DNA from: a virus
Direction: 5' to 3' (one strand)
Length of the DNA stretch: 57,842 bases
IMG/VR virus record: IMGVR_UViG_3300038856_000076
Coordinates: 1-57,842 of that record
This document shows positions 3,088-53,212 of the stretch, piece by piece. Within the stretch, counting starts at the first letter, position 1, and every line of letters begins with the position of its first letter. Both the position numbers and the translations under genes were made by a program. The notes below the pieces were generated by a model. The model ran no database searches. It was given only the letters and a program-made list of their open reading frames with translations, and was not told the DNA's origin.

Positions 3088-3243
3088 ATGAATGAAGAAA
3101 GCTTCGATGATCGTTTGAGTAGGGGTTTTGCGATCATGTCGGGACGTAATCAAGATTTACGACCTGACATGGAATACCTCGATGAAGAGGAATCCAATGG
3201 CAGTGATTATGGTTTAGATGGAGGATATCTTGATGAAGAATGA
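3088..3243 (+). CDS. small acidic hypothetical protein
   Basis: ATG at 3088 lies 5 nt after the primase stop and follows AGGAT. The 51-aa product is D/E-rich. This is shorter than the track ORF at 3055, whose start overlaps the upstream gene. Confidence 0.3.
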   Translation: MNEESFDDRLSRGFAIMSGRNQDLRPDMEYLDEEESNGSDYGLDGGYLDEE

Positions 3244-3907
3244 TGTAGCCGAAGGCAACTTGGCTAGCACAGAGAAAGGTTCTGGCGCAAGACGGAATAG
3301 TGGAAAAGTCGATTTTTCACTTGTACCCTTCCATCTGCTGTCTGGTGTTGCCCGTGTCTTGATGAGTGGTGAGTTGAAGTACAATACTCACAATTGGGCC
3401 AAAGGTATGAAATTTTCATCAAGCTTTAGTTGCTTGATGCGTCATTTAATCAAGTGGTTCTATTGCAAGGAAGACCTTGATGCTGAGACTGGCGAGCATC
3501 ACTTGGATCATGCTATGTGTAATCTTTTATTCTTGAAGCACTACACACGCACCTATTCAGAGGGTGACGACCGGCCACAAGAGTTTACGGACTTCGCGGA
3601 TTGGCTTTCTGACATCAATACTCCATTTGATGCAGACGCATTTGTACATCGTAATCCATTTGTTCTTGGCGAAACCTGGAAACCTCTTCCAAACTTCGAT
3701 GGAATCTACGAAGTATCTGACAAAGGCCGTGTTCGGTCTATAGATCACCAAGGTATGTATGATGTGATTCAAGGACGTATCTTTACCACTGTGACTAATA
3801 GCAGCGGTCAAGAGTTGGTTGCATTATATACCGAGGCAGATGGTTTTGAATCTTTCATAGTTACTGACCTTGTAAAATTGGCTTTTGGAAATGAACAATC
3901 AACCTAG
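3218..3907 (+). CDS. dATP/dGTP-diphosphohydrolase-N-like (DUF5664-like) domain fused to a NUMOD4-like C-terminal module
   Basis: The N-terminal segment (VDFSLVPFHLLSGVARVLMSGELKYNTHNWAKGMKF...EHHLDHAMCNLLFLKHY) resembles the phage dGTP_diPhyd_N family. The C-terminus (WKPLPNFDGIYEVSDKGRVRSI) is a NUMOD4-type motif. An alternative start lies at 3233. Confidence 0.5.
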   Translation: MEDILMKNDVAEGNLASTEKGSGARRNSGKVDFSLVPFHLLSGVARVLMSGELKYNTHNWAKGMKFSSSFSCLMRHLIKWFYCKEDLDAETGEHHLDHAMCNLLFLKHYTRTYSEGDDRPQEFTDFADWLSDINTPFDADAFVHRNPFVLGETWKPLPNFDGIYEVSDKGRVRSIDHQGMYDVIQGRIFTTVTNSSGQELVALYTEADGFESFIVTDLVKLAFGNEQST

Positions 3908-27827: not shown

Positions 27828-28364
27828 TTAGTAGTTTGTGTGATAAGGATCATCCTCAGCAGCTTCCTCAGCAGCTTCCTCAGCAACGTACTCTTCAGAT
27901 TCGATGCCTTCAGGGGCTTCCTCAGCAGCTTCCTCAGCAGCTTCCTCAGCAGCTTCCTCAGCAGCTTCCTCAGCAACATACTCTTCAGATTCGACGCCTT
28001 CAGGGGCTTCCTCAGTAACCGGAGGCTCTAATAAATCTTCCCGGTAAGGGACGATTCGGCCATCCACGTACACATACCCATTACTTATTGGTTCGGAGCG
28101 ATCATTGCAAGGCATCAGTCGAATAACACAATCCGATTCTTTGGCACCGTCAGGTAACTTGACTTTGGCTTCAGTTGCGCCAGGTTGTACACCACCCCAG
28201 CGCTCCAATTTCCCTTGATAGTAAATCTCGATCCTTGTTGGACAAGAACTTTCTGGGACAGGGATTGTAATACGAGTTTTCATTTTGGTTGCCTTATGAG
28301 TGGTTGTATTCGTTTGACGAGGCACACCGCGTGAACAACCGGAACATTCGCTATTTCTTGCCAT
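27828..28364 (-). CDS. putative terminase small subunit with Cys-rich N-terminus and (EEAA)n acidic repeat tail
   Basis: 178-aa ORF immediately upstream of terL. The C-terminal half is a tandem repeat (EEAPEGVESEEYVAEEAAEEAAEEAAEEAAEEAPEGIESEEYVAEEAAEEAAEDD). The terS call is positional. Confidence 0.4.
   Translation of the reverse strand: MARNSECSGCSRGVPRQTNTTTHKATKMKTRITIPVPESSCPTRIEIYYQGKLERWGGVQPGATEAKVKLPDGAKESDCVIRLMPCNDRSEPISNGYVYVDGRIVPYREDLLEPPVTEEAPEGVESEEYVAEEAAEEAAEEAAEEAAEEAPEGIESEEYVAEEAAEEAAEDDPYHTNY
27857..28015. repeat. tandem 12-bp repeat (cagcagcttcct)n nested in a ~90-bp higher-order duplication
   Basis: It lies inside the coding sequence of the 27828-28364 gene and produces repeat-artifact ORFs on the opposite strand (27735-28031, 27836-28018). 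Confidence 0.8.
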
Positions 28365-32894: not shown

Positions 32895-33185
32895 CTATTT
32901 CACGGTGACAGGTTGATTGGTCACAAATCGCAGAGCGATATTGACCACACCCATAACAGTTGCAGCAATCGCCGCCCACTGTGGATTTGCCTGAATGAGA
33001 TCACTTCCTGATAGTGCTGCTACAACGCCAGCGATGGCAGTGATCGCGTTTGCCCAGAAAGTCTTCGATTGTAGAATGGGCTTCCCGTTCATGTTGTTCT
33101 CCTGTGGTTGAGGTTCATTAGGTTTCGGTTGAGGATTAACCGAATCACCATCGCCGGGTACAAGGTCATCATACGGATTACTCAT
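32895..33185 (-). CDS. holin-like small membrane protein
   Basis: 96 aa with two predicted TM helices (FWANAITAIAGVVAALSG; WAAIAATVMGVVNIALRFV) after a P/Q-rich N-terminus. Confidence 0.35.
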   Translation of the reverse strand: MSNPYDDLVPGDGDSVNPQPKPNEPQPQENNMNGKPILQSKTFWANAITAIAGVVAALSGSDLIQANPQWAAIAATVMGVVNIALRFVTNQPVTVK

Positions 33186-33775
33186 GGTTTTTCACCCTCT
33201 TCGTTTTTTGTTTCAATGATGATACCGGCAATTCGGTCACTCAGATCAATAAGGTCATCTTCCCAACCTTCATATTTATCTTGGATTACATCACTGACGG
33301 CATTGACGATAGATTGACCCCAGCGGATCAAAGCTGGTCGGGCAAGCAGAAGGCCGGAAGTAACAGAGAGTCTGTGAAGAGTGTTAGTTAAACGCTCGGC
33401 TTGCATCATCAAGTCAGTCATCTTGCCATAGTTGGCAAGCATGGACGCTTCATCTTCCATTTTATTGCGGTGTGCCGCAATGATGGCATTGAGATCGATT
33501 AGGTTGTCACGAAGTAATTTGACTTCTTGACCTTCTGGGCAATCGATTGAAATTCGACGCCGAAACTGTTCAGTCAGGTAATCTTGCATATCATCCCGTG
33601 GGTCATCCTTTGGACCACCATGAGCGACACATCGCTCACTGCCTTCCACGGACACATTTCGACATTGTTCGCCATTGGGTAAGATACCCTTACATCGACG
33701 CTCGTCATCTAGGTCCGTGACTCGTTCAAAGGACATAACCGTCACAATCTGTATAAATGGAAAATCCAATACCAT
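33182..33775 (-). CDS. first gene of - operon; zinc-ribbon protein (possible regulator)
   Basis: CKGILPNGEQCRNVSVEGSERCVAHGG is a CxxC…CxxH ribbon. The gene is divergent from the + strand promoter region. An alternative start lies at 33736 (MSFERV). Confidence 0.4.
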   Translation of the reverse strand: MVLDFPFIQIVTVMSFERVTDLDDERRCKGILPNGEQCRNVSVEGSERCVAHGGPKDDPRDDMQDYLTEQFRRRISIDCPEGQEVKLLRDNLIDLNAIIAAHRNKMEDEASMLANYGKMTDLMMQAERLTNTLHRLSVTSGLLLARPALIRWGQSIVNAVSDVIQDKYEGWEDDLIDLSDRIAGIIIETKNEEGEKP

Positions 33776-33845: not shown

Positions 33846-33896
33846 CCTAATTTTGGGCTCAGATGGGTTGACAAGTCGCCCAAATTAGGTCATACT
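33846..33896 (+). promoter_or_regulatory. sigma70-like promoter embedded in an inverted-repeat operator
   Basis: TTGACA (33868-33873), a 17-nt spacer, then CATACT. It is flanked by the inverted repeat CCTAATTTTGGGC (33846-33858) / GCCCAAATTAGG (33878-33889). A second TTGACA lies at 33904. It sits in the divergent intergenic region ahead of the + strand accessory operon. Confidence 0.45.
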
Positions 33897-33935
33897 AATA
33901 ATTGACAATTCGTTTCTACACGCTAGGATAGTGGT

Positions 33936-34166
33936 ATGCGACAACTGCGAATCATTACGAAGACGCCCGACACTGAACAAGTGATGCTTGAGCCGGGTGT
34001 GCATGGGGCTCTGTACAACATCCCTGAAGTGCGTGAAGCAAGGGACGTAATCGAGAAGAATCCAGCCATTGAAATGCTCGGCATTCGGATTGGTGCCCGT
34101 TACTATTCTCTGGTTGTATCTCATGAAGATACACTGCAACCCCAACATTTTCAGCTAGATGAATGA
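33936..34166 (+). CDS. hypothetical protein (first + strand accessory gene)
   Basis: 76-aa ORF that starts ~40 nt after the promoter. Its stop overlaps the next start. Confidence 0.4.
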   Translation: MRQLRIITKTPDTEQVMLEPGVHGALYNIPEVREARDVIEKNPAIEMLGIRIGARYYSLVVSHEDTLQPQHFQLDE

Positions 34167-34488
34167 AATTGAATGGCGTGATGTGCCAGGGTACCCTGGA
34201 TATGAAGCTTCTACATTTGGGAGTATTGTCGGATTCAAAGGCCAATTGAAACCATGTTTGAATCGTAAGACAGGTTACTTGCAACTCCGTCTTTATCGTC
34301 ATGGTGTTCCCACAACTCTAACTGTACACCAAGTCATTGCAATGACATTCCTCGGACCTTGCCCACCAGGGAAAGAAGTGTTGCACGGTCCACTAGGAAA
34401 GCAATTCAATGGTGTTAAGAATCTGCGATATGGGACTCGATCTGAAAATATGACACAATACTGGGAAGAGAAACATGGCCAATACTGA
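34159..34488 (+). CDS. HNH homing endonuclease (NUMOD4 + HNH_3)
   Basis: The NUMOD4 motif IEWRDVPGYPGYEAS is near the N-terminus. The HNH core is HQVIAMTFLGP…LHGPLGKQFNGVKNLRYGTRSEN. Confidence 0.7.
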   Translation: MNEIEWRDVPGYPGYEASTFGSIVGFKGQLKPCLNRKTGYLQLRLYRHGVPTTLTVHQVIAMTFLGPCPPGKEVLHGPLGKQFNGVKNLRYGTRSENMTQYWEEKHGQY

Positions 34489-34657
34489 TCTTGATGGTTC
34501 TCCTATGTTAATTTTGAGTTACGCCGAAGCGAAAATATTGAATGATGCTCTTGACAGTCTTGGTTTTGACAGCAATAATAGTCGTGTAAAGTATAAGCTT
34601 GAATCTTTTCTGAATGACCCTCGTTGTATAGAATGGGAGAACAAATGTCACACATGA
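34475..34657 (+). CDS. hypothetical small protein
   Basis: 60-aa ORF overlapping its neighbours. Confidence 0.3.
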   Translation: MANTDLDGSPMLILSYAEAKILNDALDSLGFDSNNSRVKYKLESFLNDPRCIEWENKCHT

Positions 34658-34854
34658 TCTATGATGATTACGACGAGTATGAAGAAAATGATCTTGAATG
34701 GGGTGATTATGGCTTCGATGACGATGACGATGACTTCGAGGACGAGGAGGTCTACGACGAGATGTCAGATTGGGAAGGCGATGACTGGGAAGATGATTTC
34801 GATGATGACTACGAGGAAGATTTCAATGATGAGGTTGAAAACGGTTGGCTATAA
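34624..34854 (+). CDS. hyper-acidic D/E-rich small protein (possible DNA mimic)
   Basis: 76 aa, of which more than 50% are D/E with interspersed aromatics (DDYDEYEENDLEWGDYGFDDDDDDFEDEEVYDEMSDWEGDDWEDDFDDDYEEDFNDE). An alternative start lies at 34645. Confidence 0.4.
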   Translation: MYRMGEQMSHMIYDDYDEYEENDLEWGDYGFDDDDDDFEDEEVYDEMSDWEGDDWEDDFDDDYEEDFNDEVENGWL

Positions 34855-35162
34855 AACGCACATTATATGATCAGAATGGGGAGAAACTAAGCCGATTTGG
34901 TAAGGCTGGTGTTCAGCGTGCGTTGATGGCCCCCGTTAAAATTCTCGGCAACGCTAAGTCAGCCGACTATGCAATGGTCAGATGCGAAGAGACTGACACC
35001 TATATCACACGAGACGGGGCCGGTCAGCGATCTTGTACTTTCCATGTCATGTGGTGGGTTGATAACGAAGCCAGGGGTAAAGACTTTGAATTCTCTAAAC
35101 GAGACTCAGCAATCAACCTCTTTCTGAAAAAGTCGAAAGAACCAATTCATGAAGTGGCATGA
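34845..35162 (+). CDS. hypothetical protein
   Basis: 105-aa ORF. Confidence 0.35.
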   Translation: MAIKRTLYDQNGEKLSRFGKAGVQRALMAPVKILGNAKSADYAMVRCEETDTYITRDGAGQRSCTFHVMWWVDNEARGKDFEFSKRDSAINLFLKKSKEPIHEVA

Positions 35163-35445
35163 CTCTAAAACAGGGTACACCAAAATTTTGGAGGTTGAAC
35201 ACAACTTCCCGCACCAAACGGTAATGCGTCCACCCGGTGGTGGTAAAGGTCTCGTGAATGTAGTCGATGGTGTCCCACAGCCACATGCTTGTGTCACTGA
35301 TGTTACCAAATATGATGATGTGTGGCAAGTGACGGTTGGTGATGGGTATTTTATGATCACACTACGTGATCCAAAGCGTTGGTCATACGTTATGGGTGAT
35401 ATCGGATTAGTTATCGCCCGACACATCAATCAGGAGAAAATATAA
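35149..35445 (+). CDS. hypothetical protein
   Basis: 98-aa ORF. Its stop overlaps the next start. Confidence 0.35.
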   Translation: MKWHDSKTGYTKILEVEHNFPHQTVMRPPGGGKGLVNVVDGVPQPHACVTDVTKYDDVWQVTVGDGYFMITLRDPKRWSYVMGDIGLVIARHINQEKI

Positions 35446-35780
35446 TGGGTTGGGCGTCTGGTAGCATGCTTGCAGAAGACGTGTGGGAGATTGTGCGACC
35501 ACATGTCGCATGTGGGCAGCGACGTAAAGTCGCTCGTAAAATTTGGGAAGCATTCGAGTCAATGGACTGTGATACATTAGACGAAGCAGAGCAATTACAA
35601 AAGGATGCTGGCTACGATTACTTTGAATTCTACAAAATGGATGATAACGAAGATGAGTGCAACAAATTTAATTGCCACCAAAAAGCTGAGTATATTGGTA
35701 GTTTAACAGAGAGTCGAACTGTCCAAACATGCTCTAAACACGTTGATGACCTTGAAAACTATGAGGAGATCGGAGAATGA
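35445..35780 (+). CDS. hypothetical protein
   Basis: 111-aa ORF. A GGAG RBS lies upstream and ATGA start/stop coupling is present. Confidence 0.4.
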   Translation: MGWASGSMLAEDVWEIVRPHVACGQRRKVARKIWEAFESMDCDTLDEAEQLQKDAGYDYFEFYKMDDNEDECNKFNCHQKAEYIGSLTESRTVQTCSKHVDDLENYEEIGE

Positions 35781-36469
35781 TCGATCAGATACGCCATAGC
35801 CTATGCATAGGGTTAATACTGCAACTGTGTCTAGCAGCGACTGGGTATACACAAACGATTGCTAAGTCGAGCGTTCGCGTCTATGTCTTCGATGATAGTG
35901 ATAAGTTCTATGACTCAATGGGCTCGGGGACTCTTCTAACGCCCACGCAGGTAATCACAAATTACCATGTCATCAAAGATCGACACAAAGATGATTCAAT
36001 TGAGATTCGATTCTATGATGGCGAACGACGACAAGCTAAAGTTCAAGCCGAAGACAAGGTTTGGGATTTAGCCCTCTTGCAAATTGAGCCTTACCCTAAA
36101 GTCACTCCTCCTCCCATTGGTCGATTACCTAGCAAAGGCGACCATCTGTATATTGCTGGGTTCGGACAGGACTATGAGTACAAAGTCCAAAAGGGTGTAC
36201 TAGAAGGCTATTATGCCCCGAAGACAGGTATGGATGGTGGATGGATGAAGATTGATAATACTGGTGCTCGAAATGGCGACAGTGGTGGCCCAATCAGCAA
36301 CACAGCAGGTCAATGGGTGGGAACATTGTTTGGTTCAATTCAAGAGGGCGATATTCACACCTATGGGACACACGTAAGTCGAATCAAGATTGTCTTTGGT
36401 GACAAGATCAAACTCGGGTCGCCATATGATAATTACATTTTATCGGAGGAGAAACCAGATGGCAAGTGA
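35777..36469 (+). CDS. secreted trypsin-like (S1) serine protease
   Basis: An N-terminal signal peptide is present. The catalytic triad contexts are TNYHVI (His), DLALLQI (Asp) and GDSGGP (Ser). Confidence 0.7.
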   Translation: MIDQIRHSLCIGLILQLCLAATGYTQTIAKSSVRVYVFDDSDKFYDSMGSGTLLTPTQVITNYHVIKDRHKDDSIEIRFYDGERRQAKVQAEDKVWDLALLQIEPYPKVTPPPIGRLPSKGDHLYIAGFGQDYEYKVQKGVLEGYYAPKTGMDGGWMKIDNTGARNGDSGGPISNTAGQWVGTLFGSIQEGDIHTYGTHVSRIKIVFGDKIKLGSPYDNYILSEEKPDGK

Positions 36470-36943: not shown

Positions 36944-37428
36944 TGTTACAGCAGTTATACACAGTATCGTTGCTTATAAAACGCGATGATAAACCTGTTT
37001 TTCCGTGGACAGGCTTTTTTGGATATAAGCCTTGGAAAGAGAAAATCTGTGAAGCCCTGAGATCAGAAGGCCATGAATATGCTGCTAGAGTCGTCGAATT
37101 ATGGGATGGCAAGACGGATTCGATTTATTTTGCAAACAATCTCATACTTGGGACAATCAAAATCGAAGAAGGTAAGAAATTGTACGACCAGAGTTATGAT
37201 ATCCATCTGACTCATACCAATCGACAAATTGTCGCACAGTGGCAAGATGATGAAGGCAATATTATCTGTGACACAAACAAATGTCCCACAGGATATGGCG
37301 TCACTGTATTAGAAGCAATTGGCAGCTTAGTATTGGGCACCATCAATACACATTTAATCGAAAATTCCAACGATATTCTGTCGCAACACTTTTCAATTTT
37401 TGTACCAAAATACACGGGGCATGCATGA
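36943..37428 (+). CDS. hypothetical protein
   Basis: 161-aa ORF. Its stop overlaps the next start (ATGA). Confidence 0.45.
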   Translation: MLQQLYTVSLLIKRDDKPVFPWTGFFGYKPWKEKICEALRSEGHEYAARVVELWDGKTDSIYFANNLILGTIKIEEGKKLYDQSYDIHLTHTNRQIVAQWQDDEGNIICDTNKCPTGYGVTVLEAIGSLVLGTINTHLIENSNDILSQHFSIFVPKYTGHA

Positions 37429-37856
37429 AGATTTACATCGCCGGCCCGTTATTTACCCAAGCAGAACGTCAATGGAATGCTAAACTTGCATCCGCACTAC
37501 GTCAACGATGCACGGCTGAAATTGCTTTGCCACAAGACTTTTGTCGGGGGACAACATCTTCTAAGGTAATGTTTTCTCGTTGCCTTTCTGAATTGACTAC
37601 ATCTCAAGCAGTAGTTCTCAATGCTGATGGTGCTGATGTTGATGCAGGAAGTGCATTTGAAGCGGGTGTTGCTCACCAATTAGGGATTCAATTGGTTAGT
37701 TATCGTACAGACCTTCGTCGGGCTGGTGATTCAGAGTTTGATGTGAATCTTATGCTAGCTCATGCAGGTGCATTCTTGAATTGTCATGGCGACACAGTTG
37801 ATACAGTTGCTTCTAAACTTCTAAAAGAAATCAGAACAAATTACATTGGATACTAA
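37425..37856 (+). CDS. nucleoside 2-deoxyribosyltransferase-like (NDT/DNPH1 superfamily) protein
   Basis: The start is set at MKIYIAGPLF, the hallmark N-terminal motif of the family. A DAGSAFEAGVA segment corresponds to the family's DxGTxxExG motif. Length is 143 aa. Confidence 0.6.
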   Translation: MKIYIAGPLFTQAERQWNAKLASALRQRCTAEIALPQDFCRGTTSSKVMFSRCLSELTTSQAVVLNADGADVDAGSAFEAGVAHQLGIQLVSYRTDLRRAGDSEFDVNLMLAHAGAFLNCHGDTVDTVASKLLKEIRTNYIGY

Positions 37857-49244: not shown

Positions 49245-49509
49245 ATTCATCTTGTACCGTTTGTGGTGGCTTGGTCGGCGACCCCGTATCGTGTCGAAGC
49301 ATATAGGACGTTATGTCCGAGTTCAAATGGATCACAATGTGATTGATGGTATCGTTGTTGCTGTATATGGACCAAATAATTTTCTGTTTTATGCCATTGA
49401 TTCAATAGCACACGGAAATCTACATTGTGATCCATCACGACATTATCCGACCCATCTCGGCTACTTTGTGGCACGGGAACGAGGATTACCGCACAGGCGA
49501 TGCCGATGA
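49237..49509 (+). CDS. hypothetical protein
   Basis: The start is moved to ATG at 49237 (MFRFILYRLWW…). AGAGGAGGA lies 9 nt upstream. Confidence 0.4.
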   Translation: MFRFILYRLWWLGRRPRIVSKHIGRYVRVQMDHNVIDGIVVAVYGPNNFLFYAIDSIAHGNLHCDPSRHYPTHLGYFVARERGLPHRRCR

Positions 49510-50330
49510 TTCTTGATCTGGACGATAATCCCGTTGACACAATCATCAAAGGTGAAGAGTACAAAGTCCCTTGCGTAAATGGACTTCCTGTAGTGTTACC
49601 TTCGCATGTGGATGAAGGTACTGATGGAAAGACGGCACGTCACTGGCATGTGGATAGGCGGTGGGGTGATACGATGCGACCCTTGGAGTTGTTTTGTCGT
49701 CGTACTGAGCAGCACGTAGGTGGTCGCCAATCATTACAACATAACCTTGATGTGGCGATTGTCAAGGATCAAGGCGAACCCATTGAGTACAACATTCTAC
49801 GGGCTCAATGCACAAATGTCATTGCCACAGGCCAGTTATTCTCTTCGTTGGCCTATCTGTATTTGAAACATGGTACCGAGACATCTAAAGATGGGTTCTG
49901 TGTCCATCACCGTACTCAATTGCAATTTGATACACATCATTCTTGTATGACATGTCCCGCACATGGTCTACGATACAACCGTGACAGTACACCTTTCTAC
50001 AAAGCTCCGTTCTTTGTAAAATTGGCAATCGATCATGTGCTTATGGAGTCTTGTGAATTAACTTCAATGAAGCTCCGATTCCATATGAGTGAGGACATTG
50101 AAATGACAGACTATACTCTGTATTTGATGGACTCGAATGAAAAGATAATTGCATTTTGCGACAATTCAATGCCCTCTCCAATAACACTATCCAAAGATGA
50201 CCATTTTGTAGTCACATTCGGAGCATGGCCATCGTCTGACTTTTGTCCAAGCTTTGCACACAAGTCCGAAGAATGCGAGCAGCCAGTGGAATTTGAAATT
50301 GACATTGAATACAGCTACTTGCCTAACTGA
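49506..50330 (+). CDS. Rieske [2Fe-2S]-like protein, paralog 2
   Basis: CVHHRTQL…(15 aa)…CPAHGLRY. The blocks VLPSHVDEGTDGKTARHWHVDRRWG and AWPSSDFCPSF are shared with paralogs 1 and 3. The start is ATGA-coupled at 49506. Confidence 0.55.
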   Translation: MILDLDDNPVDTIIKGEEYKVPCVNGLPVVLPSHVDEGTDGKTARHWHVDRRWGDTMRPLELFCRRTEQHVGGRQSLQHNLDVAIVKDQGEPIEYNILRAQCTNVIATGQLFSSLAYLYLKHGTETSKDGFCVHHRTQLQFDTHHSCMTCPAHGLRYNRDSTPFYKAPFFVKLAIDHVLMESCELTSMKLRFHMSEDIEMTDYTLYLMDSNEKIIAFCDNSMPSPITLSKDDHFVVTFGAWPSSDFCPSFAHKSEECEQPVEFEIDIEYSYLPN

Positions 50331-51036: not shown

Positions 51037-51368
51037 TCCAACGAGGCATATATTGCGGTGAAGAGGAACAATTTCGTGGTCGCATTGCAAATATCTGCAT
51101 CAATGGTGAGTATCTGCGGGCTCAATTTGACAAGGGCAAGTTGTGGGAAACCCACAGTCGGTTGGCTTTTCACACCAATGACTGGAAAGTGATTGAAGAT
51201 GATATTGAAGAGGATGATACTCCTCTTTCTTATCCTGCTAAACGTGAACTTTCTTCCAAAGGACTCTTGTGCTTCTTTGGTTTGTATGCTATATTTGTAG
51301 TAGTGTTGACTTTCGTTATTGGGTTGATGTATCAAAGTTCTGTTGCAGGCTGGCTATTCGGCCAATGA
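51033..51368 (+). CDS. hypothetical protein with C-terminal TM helix
   Basis: The start is moved to ATG at 51033 (MIQRGIYCGEE…). This gives an ATGA overlap, with GAGGAG upstream. Confidence 0.45.
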   Translation: MIQRGIYCGEEEQFRGRIANICINGEYLRAQFDKGKLWETHSRLAFHTNDWKVIEDDIEEDDTPLSYPAKRELSSKGLLCFFGLYAIFVVVLTFVIGLMYQSSVAGWLFGQ

Positions 51369-52108
51369 TCAAAACACTTGAAGGAAAACCGACCGACTGT
51401 GTTCTTGCAGGCTACGATTATTTGGTACCGGCAGTACGAGGAATCCCCGTCGTTGTGCCTTCACATGTTGATGAGGGCAATGATGGTAAAACTTCTCGAC
51501 ATTGGCACGTGGATACACGTTGGGGTAATTCATCAAAGCCTAAGCATTATTGGAATAATGAAACCATTGAAAAATTTCAAGTCCACGATGATCTATGGAC
51601 TTTGATTCTTCGGGACGACGGACAGTCTATTGAGTATGAGCGTTTCACTGCCGAAAAATCCTTCATTTGGCCCACGGGAAGTGCTTGGTCGAGTCTCGTA
51701 TGGCTTTATTATCATTTGGGCGATCTACCTGCCAATAATGGATACTGTGTGCATCACCACACTCGCCTTGACAAATGGGAAGATGAATTGGTCTGCCCGT
51801 CGCACGGCATGCGATTCAAAGCCGATGGGTCACCGCGATTTCAAGGTCCCTTCTTTGTTCAGCTAACTTATGGTGACGCTGTCTCTAAAGTACCGGTCAC
51901 ATTTGATCATGAGTTAGAAATTCCTTTCTCAGTCAAAGTTGAAACACGGGCTCGATTGCAATTGATTGATTCTAATCAGGAAATAGTTGTTGAATCATGT
52001 GATTACATTTTGCTGCCACCTGACGGCGAGTCCTACCTGATTGAAATTATTGCTTGGCCCTCGGATATAAATTGTCCTGCTTTTGCAGAGGAATATTCAA
52101 GACCATGA
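51365..52108 (+). CDS. Rieske [2Fe-2S]-like protein, paralog 3
   Basis: The start is moved to ATG at 51365 (MIKTLEGKP…, ATGA-coupled). CVHHHTRL…(13 aa)…CPSHGMRF. The blocks VVPSHVDEGNDGKTSRHWHVDTRWG and AWPSDINCPAF are shared with paralogs 1 and 2. Confidence 0.55.
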   Translation: MIKTLEGKPTDCVLAGYDYLVPAVRGIPVVVPSHVDEGNDGKTSRHWHVDTRWGNSSKPKHYWNNETIEKFQVHDDLWTLILRDDGQSIEYERFTAEKSFIWPTGSAWSSLVWLYYHLGDLPANNGYCVHHHTRLDKWEDELVCPSHGMRFKADGSPRFQGPFFVQLTYGDAVSKVPVTFDHELEIPFSVKVETRARLQLIDSNQEIVVESCDYILLPPDGESYLIEIIAWPSDINCPAFAEEYSRP

Positions 52109-52527
52109 ACGAAAACCAACTCAAATGGGCTGACGCCCTAGAATCCGGCGAGTTCAAGCAGGGACAAAATGCTCTTTGTACTATTCATCCTACGACGAAG
52201 GTCAAAACGTATTGTTGCCTCGGCGTAGCTTGTGAAATTTATCAACGAGAAGTGGGCGACTTGAGCATCGAAGAACATGACATCAATGACATATACGGTA
52301 TGGCCTATGGCATACACTGTATGATCTATGATGACTCAGTTGGTTTACTGCCTGACAAAGTAGCCGAGTGGCTTGACTGTACATATGAGGGGACGTTGAA
52401 TTCTGGGATCGGAGAATCGTGCCTTGAATGCAACGATGTCAGACGTGAGTCATTTCAGCAAATTGCCAAGCGTATTAGGGACGGTGAATTGCATGTACTA
52501 AGGAAAGCTAAATTGAACGATGCATAA
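52105..52527 (+). CDS. Cys-rich hypothetical protein
   Basis: ATGA-coupled start (MNENQLKW…). Cys pairs are CCLGVACEIY and CLECND. Confidence 0.45.
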   Translation: MNENQLKWADALESGEFKQGQNALCTIHPTTKVKTYCCLGVACEIYQREVGDLSIEEHDINDIYGMAYGIHCMIYDDSVGLLPDKVAEWLDCTYEGTLNSGIGESCLECNDVRRESFQQIAKRIRDGELHVLRKAKLNDA

Positions 52528-53212
52528 GATCATTTTCCTTGATATCGATGGAGTATTGAAGCCACACCTGGATTCAAAGATTGCCCATCAATGCATGTGG
52601 CAATTGAACAATCTACTTGATCTAACACAAGCAAAGCTAGTCATTTCGTCATCGTGGCGGTACATGGTTCTTGGCGGAAGTATGACGATTGAGGGGTTTG
52701 ATAATTTGCTCTGTACTCATGGTTTACAAAGTTGTTGGAATCCGACAGTGCTAGGCACAACATGCTCAGATGAGGATGCGAAATCACGTGAAGAACAAAT
52801 CCTTGGATGGGTGAAATCTTATGAACCCACACACTGGGTGGCTCTGGATGATATGTCATTGAAACTTGAAAATGCGATTCATGTTGATCCAGTTATCGGT
52901 TTGAGTGGGCGAAATGTTGCCGACGCTGTAGCAATACTGACTGATAGTTTGTTTGATTGGAAAAAGTTAGATTCGCGGCTCCGTGTTGCAATGTCTACAT
53001 TTGCATTGAATGAGACGCGGGAAGAGATTGACTCAGCCGTTGCTTTTTTGTTTCTTCCTGATTCATCGTCTGTAGACATCACATGGGACGACGGCTACCA
53101 TATTGATGTTTATGATGCACGTGACCCATTCCTAATGGCGGACCCGGTCACAGAGATCAATGTTGACAGCCCGCAAGCATTATTGATAGCCGTGAAAGGA
53201 TTATTACAATGA
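52520..53212 (+). CDS. HAD_SAK-like HAD-superfamily protein (RNA-repair-associated type)
   Basis: IIFLDIDGVL is motif I. ISSSWR and VALDD are also present. The C-terminal ~70 aa are paralogous to the C-terminus of the 53304-53855 product. Confidence 0.5.
   Translation: MHKIIFLDIDGVLKPHLDSKIAHQCMWQLNNLLDLTQAKLVISSSWRYMVLGGSMTIEGFDNLLCTHGLQSCWNPTVLGTTCSDEDAKSREEQILGWVKSYEPTHWVALDDMSLKLENAIHVDPVIGLSGRNVADAVAILTDSLFDWKKLDSRLRVAMSTFALNETREEIDSAVAFLFLPDSSSVDITWDDGYHIDVYDARDPFLMADPVTEINVDSPQALLIAVKGLLQ

Follow-up and report, generated by a model that had tools for sequence, protein, structure and literature searches.

Is a short phage reading frame whose product consists largely of aspartate and glutamate a real gene, and if so, what kind of protein does it encode? 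The question was raised by a plus-strand open reading frame (ORF) in the IMG/VR virus record IMGVR_UViG_3300038856_000076, of which positions 1 to 57,842 were analysed as a whole (57,842 nucleotides, hereafter the window). In the initial annotation, made from the sequence alone, the frame at 34624–34854 was taken as a hyper-acidic protein of 76 amino acids (aa) with interspersed aromatic residues and was proposed to be a DNA mimic resembling the anti-restriction proteins Ocr and ArdA. The evidence presented here argues that the gene, which we refer to as acid69, is genuine and encodes 69 aa, and that it is a derived member of a very small phage family. Other members of this family carry a zinc ribbon in front of an acidic tail, whereas acid69 has lost the ribbon and expanded the tail.

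The acid69 coding sequence spans 34645–34854 on the plus strand (69 aa and a stop codon), as indicated by the ORF list, the sequence, the metagenome gene calls and the composition. In the product, MSHMIYDDYDEYEENDLEWGDYGFDDDDDDFEDEEVYDEMSDWEGDDWEDDFDDDYEEDFNDEVENGWL, aspartate and glutamate (D/E) make up 53.6% of the residues (23 D and 14 E, counted from the ATG at 34645). There is no lysine or arginine (K/R) and only one histidine, and the net charge is approximately −37, or −0.54 per residue. Fourteen residues (20%) are aromatic (6 Y, 4 W and 4 F) and only eight are aliphatic. Six-frame translation of the window yields 321 ORFs of 50 aa or more; the runner-up in acidity had 28% D/E, and the acidity of acid69 is therefore an extreme outlier that cannot be put down to chance. 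The hyper-acidic frame with aromatic residues is thus real and extreme, as first described. However, its 76-aa version has exactly 50% D/E and not more than half, and the likely product is the 69-aa protein.

The longer version ends at the same stop codon as acid69 and starts at a TTG (34624). Its additional 21 nt (34624–34644) lie within the preceding gene, g60, have no Shine-Dalgarno sequence upstream and probably do not belong to acid69. A Shine-Dalgarno sequence, GGGAG (34635–34639), is found 5 nt upstream of the ATG at 34645. The gene callers applied to the source contigs chose this ATG, and the 69-aa product, on all five metagenome contigs, and the N-termini of the relatives described below align to the MSHM... 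of acid69. Based on this spacing, the gene calls and the aligned N-termini, translation almost certainly starts at ATG 34645 and not at TTG 34624, where the initial annotation had placed it. GGAGA-type sites were also found 5′ of the acidic genes of two related loci (L005 and L007), which are homologues or analogues of acid69. The identical acid69 protein was recovered on five contigs from different samples, the longest of which was 129,510 bp. The Shine-Dalgarno sequence and ATG, the overlaps with genes on both sides, the identity across the five contigs and the exclusively synonymous changes in the tail motif (see below) lead us to regard acid69 as a genuine, conserved and translationally coupled gene.

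Direct homology searches did not reveal any relative. Queries with acid69 found no match in Pfam (E ≤ 0.1), PHROGs or NCBIfam, no sequence match in the PDB at E ≤ 10, no tblastn match in 50,697 phage records, no match in 5.8 billion protein clusters (word-indexed phmmer) and none among 1.84 billion representatives (full HMMER pass). Relatives were reached solely through the large terminase (TerL) and two genes of the acid69 operon, g76 and g98. The TerL retrieval yielded 47 related IMG/VR loci, and g76 and g98 added more. These loci of related uncultured phages (numbered with the prefix L) were screened for acidic ORFs and their operons were compared. Two other genes of the operon, g105 and g60, found no IMG/VR relatives when used as single queries.

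Three of the loci (L005, L066 and L070, hereafter group A) have a GC content of about 45%, like the window, and encode acidic proteins of 65–94 aa. These proteins have an N-terminal zinc ribbon of the form CxxC-x13-CxxC followed by an acidic-aromatic tail (the L005 protein is MVKIDCTVCSKEFDSNELDANGVCEPCSPDDSFMYGFSDDDFRDTPDDEIDDWEGDDWEDDEWEVS). The ribbon showed a weak likeness to generic zinc ribbons (HypA, E = 0.32; rubredoxin, E = 0.37). The tail reads YGF...DWEGDDW, and its core, YGF-x-D-[DE]-D-F...D-E-x2-D-W-E-G, is common to acid69 and group A. In the window, the conserved family core YGF-D(n)-F...DE..DWEGDDWEDD covers aa 22–51 of the product (34708–34797, plus strand), as judged from Smith-Waterman alignment, profile and codon comparison. 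The Smith-Waterman alignment of acid69 with the L005 protein had a z of 5.65, and none of 2000 shuffles of acid69 reached its score. A hidden Markov model (HMM) of the three group A proteins, from which the window protein was left out, scored acid69 at 47.4 bits versus 18.9 ± 3.9, and none of 1000 shuffles reached this value. Since both scores exceed those of all the shuffles, we consider the similarity between acid69 and group A to be homology that goes beyond composition. Within DWEGDDWEDD, L005 has a different codon from the window at 5 of the 10 positions, and every change is synonymous. Over the tail, the proportion of nonsynonymous differences was 0.20–0.26 and synonymous sites were saturated. 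The gene also occupies the same slot as the group A genes, after g76 and before g98 in a promoter-proximal operon.

Searches that made use of the family did not extend it. The L005 protein returned only itself from a phmmer search of the 5.8 billion clusters, a scan of IMG/VR and JGI metagenomes for DNA encoding WEGDDWEDD detected the L005 contig again and nothing else, IMG/VR scans derived from the profile recovered known contigs only, and the family profile detected no member in GTDB genomes. These results point to a phage-specific family that is very small in current data.

It could be argued that the acidic frame is an untranslated by-product of GAT/GAC-rich sequence, as the alternative +1 frame is open too (34661–34870), and so is an alternative frame in L007. 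However, the Shine-Dalgarno sequence and the start-stop coupling fit the acidic frame only, and only in this frame are the substitutions in the motif synonymous. The profile score, unmatched by any of the 1000 shuffles, is a property of the protein, and independent gene callers picked the acidic frame. No RNA family of Rfam was detected in the window. An untranslated acidic frame is thus extremely unlikely.

The window copy is not a typical member of group A. It contains no cysteine, all four ribbon cysteines being gone, and the second knuckle is deleted, but the stretch between the knuckles, EF-SN-L-A-G, survives as EYEENDLEWGD. Because the zinc-binding cysteines have disappeared while this stretch persists, the comparison marks acid69 as a derived, degenerate and anchor-less group A member, whose ribbon was lost and whose tail was expanded by repeats. 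Two such repeats were identified with Tandem Repeats Finder. A hexanucleotide repeat, (CGATGA)x3.2 (34716–34734, plus strand), encodes a run of six aspartates at a position where the relatives have only DDD or DED. A 24-nt tandem duplication (34780–34832, plus strand; 2.2 copies, 82% matches) encodes DDWEDDFD / DDYEEDFN and lengthens the C-terminal acidic-aromatic tail, an extension that is absent from L005 and L066. Growth of this kind suggests that selection acts on charge and length and less on a fold.

The same features could also be those of a decaying or neutral remnant, a cysteine-less former zinc ribbon without function that drifts by means of slippage-prone GAT/GAC repeats. The loss of the four cysteines, the partial deletion of the ribbon and both internal repeats (hexanucleotide and 24-nt) would be expected of such a remnant. 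In addition, the ratio of nonsynonymous to synonymous substitution rates (dN/dS) of the N-terminal part is about 0.8–0.9 versus the relatives, and one close relative (L052) does not have the gene. On the other hand, the frame is intact, the Shine-Dalgarno sequence and the coupling have been kept, the protein is identical on the five contigs and the tail motif appears to be under purifying selection. The content of the slot in other phages also bears on this explanation.

Between g76 and g98 the related loci are variable, and the content of this slot is accessory. L052, whose g76 is 63% identical to that of the window, has no acidic gene there. In three other loci (L007, L068 and L071, hereafter group B; GC 57–58%), the same slot holds a cysteine-less protein of 64–72 aa, encoded directly upstream of g98. 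These proteins have 54–56% D/E, no basic residues and 17–21% aromatic residues, and share a strongly conserved C-terminal motif, GF-D/A-DSDF...YYEE-D/E-F/Y-DDAYFDET. In L007, the stop codon of the acidic gene overlaps the start codon of g98 (ATGA). Homology between group B and acid69 was not established, the Smith-Waterman z being 1.0 and the profile score being reached by 11 of 1000 shuffles when uncorrected and by 134 of 1000 when corrected for composition. Group B proteins are therefore treated as positional analogues and possible distant homologues. The string YEEDF, common to acid69 and group B, is probably convergent, since in acid69 it is located in the window-specific tandem duplication. 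Because independent cysteine-less acidic proteins fill the slot in group B, a stand-alone acidic protein seems to be selected for. Proteins with about 55% D/E, no cysteine and a conserved C-terminal motif in the same slot of three other phages are not expected of a remnant, and we consider the decay of acid69 into a functionless relic to be quite improbable.

The initial annotation had looked to structure prediction for a mimic-like surface-charge pattern. AlphaFold2, run on the single acid69 sequence and thus offering weak evidence, produced no confident fold (predicted local distance difference test, pLDDT, 55.0; predicted template modelling score, pTM, 0.14), with one helix of eight residues (58–65). 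For the L005 homologue, AlphaFold predicted a low-confidence zinc-knuckle beta-hairpin and a tail in coil conformation (pLDDT 58.9). In the classification of Das and Pappu, such charge fractions belong to the strong-polyelectrolyte, swollen-coil class. A charge of −0.54 per residue, the absence of basic residues and the presence of only eight aliphatic residues argue against a conventional core, and acid69 is probably intrinsically disordered, as far as can be judged from composition and models.

This bears directly on the proposal that acid69 is a folded B-DNA mimic of the Ocr/ArdA type that blocks type I restriction-modification or BREX. Its extreme negative charge agrees with this proposal, and so does its promoter-proximal position, as T7 Ocr is likewise expressed first. 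Ocr is the first T7 gene to be expressed and inhibits EcoKI and BREX (PMC7261183, PMC4872106). Like acid69, Ocr and ArdA are small and acidic; they are expressed early, as acid69 may be, and they compete with DNA on type I restriction-modification enzymes, BREX and RNA polymerase. Unlike what is predicted for acid69, they are folded helical dimers that copy the geometry of B-DNA. The composition had been described as typical of Ocr and ArdA, but acid69 is about twice as acidic as Ocr. D/E and K/R account for 29% and 5% of the residues in T7 Ocr (each monomer has 34 acidic and 6 basic residues, PMC4872106), for 25% and 10% in both T7 gp5.9 and SPO1 Gp46, and for 54% and 0% in acid69, which also has almost no aliphatic core. 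No Pfam match to Ocr or ArdA and no PDB sequence match was found, and the ArdA domain (PF07275, approximately 165 aa, or a homologous sArdA fragment) had no counterpart in acid69 in Pfam, NCBIfam or PHROGs. The Smith-Waterman score of acid69 against T7 Ocr was at the level of shuffles (z = 1.2). The relatives, consisting of a zinc ribbon and a tail, are unlike any Ocr or ArdA protein.

Given the composition, the lack of an Ocr/ArdA match, the shuffle-level Ocr score and the lack of a confident fold, a rigid B-DNA-shaped charge lattice in acid69 is unlikely, and we hold an anti-restriction mimic of the Ocr/ArdA type to be distinctly unlikely too. What survives of the first proposal is the idea of mimicry itself: with such a charge, imitation of nucleic acid is the most natural mechanism, whereas the anti-restriction part of the proposal is unsupported. 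Nothing points to restriction-modification or BREX as a target over RNA polymerase, gyrase, nucleoid proteins or anything else.

By analogy with known polyanions, we tentatively suggest that acid69 is a disordered polyanionic decoy that competes with nucleic acid on a nucleic-acid-binding protein, a reading to which we give a little less than an even chance. The tail would compete with DNA or RNA for the cationic nucleic-acid-binding channel of its target, with carboxylates standing in for phosphates, and the conserved Tyr, Phe, Trp and Gly positions might dock in pockets and so confer some specificity. In the relatives the zinc ribbon would serve as an anchor. In this phage, a higher charge, a higher valency and more aromatic “stickers” may compensate for its loss. 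Candidate targets are RNA polymerase, gyrase, a nucleoid protein, a RecBCD- or SMC-type complex and a restriction or BREX enzyme, each of which is known to be targeted by phage mimics. A more far-reaching and rather doubtful version holds that acid69 and its slot-mates form a class of stand-alone “protein heparin”. Such proteins would be fully disordered polyelectrolytes, would have shed their anchor and would silence a specific host enzyme or defence nuclease in a tight, fuzzy complex, with YGF and DWEG giving the specificity.

Several observations weigh against the decoy reading. The AlphaFold runs were based on one or two sequences with no deep alignment and are thus weak evidence of disorder. 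The charge-hydropathy plot is uninformative for acid69, as it places folded Ocr on the “disordered” side as well. Hydrophobic and aromatic residues in acid69 recur with a period of about 4, and the observed power was reached by only 51 of 5000 shuffles. This period derives partly from the 8-residue duplication, and it leaves room for an amphipathic helix formed on binding or on oligomerisation. The N-terminal part evolves at a near-neutral rate relative to the relatives (a dN/dS estimated from few sites), which makes a loss of function possible. The putative anchor domain is missing, there being no cysteine and no predicted domain. Finally, the likeness between acid69 and the acidic segment of SPO1 Gp44, discussed below, is compositional only (z = 2.0 versus shuffles).

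Two other roles for a polyanion were considered alongside the decoy. As a counter-ion or chaperone, acid69 would neutralise a basic phage protein or buffer Mg2+, Ca2+ or polyamines and would not inhibit any host enzyme. The richness in aspartate (23 D), the lack of basic residues and the translational coupling to neighbouring genes are in line with such a role, and the acidic disordered regions of histone chaperones act in this way (PMC10987829); acidic immunity proteins also neutralise basic partners. However, none of the products of g60, g105 and g98 is strongly basic (the net charge of the g98 homologues ranges from −6 to +2), and g98 is present without an acidic gene in L052. An HNH homing endonuclease encoded two genes upstream of acid69 is absent from most of the loci that have an acidic gene. 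Conserved aromatic and glycine positions would also be needless for ion buffering, and we regard this role as unlikely. A role of acid69 in immunity to the HNH endonuclease was rejected, as most loci with an acidic gene have no HNH gene.

It is also conceivable that acid69 mimics the C-terminal tip of the single-stranded DNA-binding protein SSB (DDDIPF-type), or the tail of T7 gp2.5, and titrates repair and replication proteins that interact with SSB. The DDDF, DDDY and EEDF units of acid69 resemble acidic tails with a terminal aromatic residue, and in gp2.5 the final 26 aa contain 58% D/E, with DF at the very end. Recognition of the SSB tip requires a C-terminal aromatic residue with a free carboxylate. 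However, the acidic proteins end in ...NGWL, ...EWEVS, ...DDEW, ...GNTE or ...EEDE, and their C-termini are not conserved among the seven proteins. A mimic of the SSB tip is therefore very improbable.

The operon in which acid69 resides, all on the plus strand, begins downstream of a divergent intergenic region of 160 bp. In a consensus scan, this region contained two tandem sigma-70-like matches on the plus strand and one on the minus strand. The tandem matches, TTGACA-17-CATACT and TTGACA-16-TAGGAT (33868–33929), are consensus matches only and constitute a candidate early promoter; L005 and L007 have comparable sites 5′ of their g76 homologues. The first gene, g76 (33936–34166), is a conserved marker of the locus with homologues in eight related loci (L005, L007, L014, L052, L066, L068, L070 and L071). 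Its end is overlapped by the HNH homing endonuclease gene (34159–34488; NUMOD4 and HNH_3 according to Pfam and PHROGs). This gene was seen only in the window and in L070, and was absent from L005, L066 and L052. In L070 (1344–2066) it is fused in frame to g76, forming an ORF of 240 aa. Because of its absence from the three loci and its fusion in L070, we consider the HNH gene to be a mobile homing endonuclease that has inserted at the 3′ terminus of g76 and has no connection with the acidic gene.

Between the HNH gene and acid69 lies g60, a gene of 60 aa (34475–34657; ORF list and gene calls) that overlaps the start of acid69 by 13 nt and has homologues in L070 (2066–2251) and L052. The initial annotation was therefore correct in counting acid69 as the fourth gene after the promoter, following g76, HNH and g60, but not in placing it directly after the homing endonuclease. 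A promoter-like site within g60, TTGACA-17-AATAAT (34551–34579; 11 of 12 consensus matches), is located 65 nt upstream of acid69 and might drive it independently of the HNH insertion. On the 3′ side comes g105 (34845–35162), which has homologues in L052 and L070 and whose first 10 nt are shared with the end of acid69. It is followed by the conserved g98 (35149–35445), identified by locus comparison as the downstream edge of the variable slot, g111 and a gene for a trypsin-like protease. Start and stop codons overlap across the whole operon. The position and layout of acid69 suggest early expression. The trypsin-like protease (35777–36469) belongs to the same promoter-proximal block and is conserved in all related loci. 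Genes for a nucleoside 2-deoxyribosyltransferase (37425–37856) and a peptide deformylase (37856–38404) are part of this block too. In the group B loci L068 (4327–5644 and 8006–8330) and L071 (4321–5815 and 7656–8324), genes for Metallophos and Thg1 (tRNA-His guanylyltransferase-like) proteins were found directly after the g98 homologue, with a radical-SAM gene some 3.5 kb beyond them.

The window comes from the genome of an uncultured tailed phage of about 130 kb. A minus-strand block (approximately 4.7–33.8 kb) encodes a P22-type coat protein, a tape-measure protein and a GpA-type large terminase, among others, and the plus-strand block starts at 33936. Identity of the large terminase to that of any cultured phage does not exceed about 26%, and the 10 kb around acid69 had no nucleotide match among the 50,697 phage records (megablast). 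No tRNA was found in the window, and TerL had no relatives in GTDB genomes. The sole hint of a host is a g98 homologue, P0005, from the higher-GC group, which carries the NCBI label “MAG: Planctomycetota bacterium”.

Several other genes of the window were noted. A protein of about 812 aa (42221–44680, plus strand) matched Pfam MVP_shoulder (1.7e-25) and Vault_3 (4e-11) and is thus similar to the major vault protein, which is unusual in a phage. The product of 3218–3907 (plus strand) combines a MazZ-like dATP/dGTP diphosphohydrolase N-terminal domain (4e-25) with a C-terminal NUMOD4 motif and may take part in manipulating the deoxynucleotide pool or point to modified DNA. Three paralogues of 250–279 aa (39224–39976, 49500–50330 and 51269–52108, plus strand) have a weak Rieske [2Fe-2S] domain, and 52520–53212 (plus strand) encodes a HAD domain (HAD_SAK_2, 1e-18) of the RNA-repair type known as “Swiss Army Knife”. 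A gene adjacent to the terminase (27828–28364, minus strand) encodes a protein with an acidic C-terminal tail, the second acidic-tail protein in this clade and unrelated to acid69. Its homologues in L003 (29–400), L007 (9319–9882) and L008 (9529–9927) contain long (DE)n, (EDEN)n and (PEVE)n runs. At the head of the divergent minus-strand block, a gene of 197 aa (33182–33775) shows conservation across more than 20 related loci, and its product had a sub-threshold match to an HGGxSTG domain (22.9 bits versus a cutoff of 29).

Acidic mimics of nucleic acids are already known, including a disordered polyanionic sub-kind. What is new here is an unannotated family that is invisible to homology searches, a free-standing form without an anchor, and a visible evolutionary path: the locus records a route from a zinc-ribbon-anchored acidic tail, through the loss of the anchor and then expansion by repeats, to a pure polyanion. 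The phage DNA mimics characterised so far are nearly all folded (Ocr, ArdA, gp5.9, Gp46, Ugi and several anti-CRISPRs), and a free-standing, fully disordered polyanion, if confirmed, would extend mimicry of shape to mimicry of charge and valency. If the “protein heparin” idea holds, disordered polyanions would represent a general strategy of uncultured phages against hosts or their defences, one that leaves no trace in sequence searches. As homology searches were blank and synteny alone recovered the relatives, composition combined with position could be a practical search route. A broad inhibitor of DNA-binding enzymes, if acid69 is one, would be a useful tool or a part for phage engineering, the value of which hinges on its target.

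Among known systems, disordered eukaryotic polyelectrolytes of the DSS1 and prothymosin-alpha type illustrate that extreme net charge can give very tight, fuzzy complexes. Acidic-aromatic activation domains such as p53 TAD2 occupy sites that bind single-stranded DNA, for which both the charges and the hydrophobic or aromatic residues are needed (PMC2755895). All of these come from lineages and cellular contexts unrelated to those of acid69, and the analogy is one of principle only. Escherichia coli YacG, an inhibitor of DNA gyrase (PMC4083091, PMC2490753), resembles the L005 and L066 homologues in having about 65 aa and an N-terminal CxxC...CxxC ribbon in front of a tail. In YacG, docking on GyrB is the task of the ribbon, while the tail, unstructured when free, inserts invariant Trp residues into pockets, occludes the DNA-binding groove and thereby excludes DNA (PMC4083091). 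However, the YacG tail is only mildly acidic, and acid69 has no zinc ribbon. Membership of the YacG family (PF03884) was rejected for L005, L066 and L070, which had no match to this profile (which includes the context of the invariant Trp40) at E ≤ 10, against 1.6e-24 for E. coli YacG, and the hhalign probability was 13% over 13 columns.

Two systems are closer to acid69 in composition and logic. The C-terminal region of the RNA polymerase subunit delta (RpoE; 83 aa, net charge −47) is disordered and displaces nucleic acids in the main channel of RNA polymerase (PMC7749165). It competes both sterically and electrostatically, and the peptide alone is active in excess (PMC7749165; Lopez de Saro 1995 as cited there). 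The N-terminal domain of delta anchors this region, an arrangement of anchor and tail that parallels the zinc-ribbon relatives of acid69. Unlike acid69, delta is a subunit of the cellular RNA polymerase of Firmicutes, and its folded N-terminal anchor is related to region 1.1 of sigma. The other system is SPO1 Gp44, an early inhibitor of RNA polymerase in host takeover. Residues 56–122 of Gp44 were found to be disordered by nuclear magnetic resonance and simulation, bind the beta and beta′ subunits of RNA polymerase and are a proposed mimic of single-stranded DNA (PMC8208478). This segment is rich in Glu and Val, with 4.5% aromatics, and lies within a protein of 237 aa with a DNA-binding N-terminal domain, whereas acid69 is rich in Asp, has 20% aromatics and stands alone. 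The combination of a small folded N-terminal domain with an acidic segment is nevertheless shared by Gp44 and the group A relatives. In D/E and K/R content, the Gp44 segment (67 aa; 56.7% and 0%, or 57% when rounded) is matched by acid69. Both consist of about 67 residues or slightly more, at least 50% D/E and no basic residues, and acid69 thus has the composition of the disordered polyanionic mimics, for which a minimum of about 60 residues, 50% D/E or more and hardly any basic residues were required.

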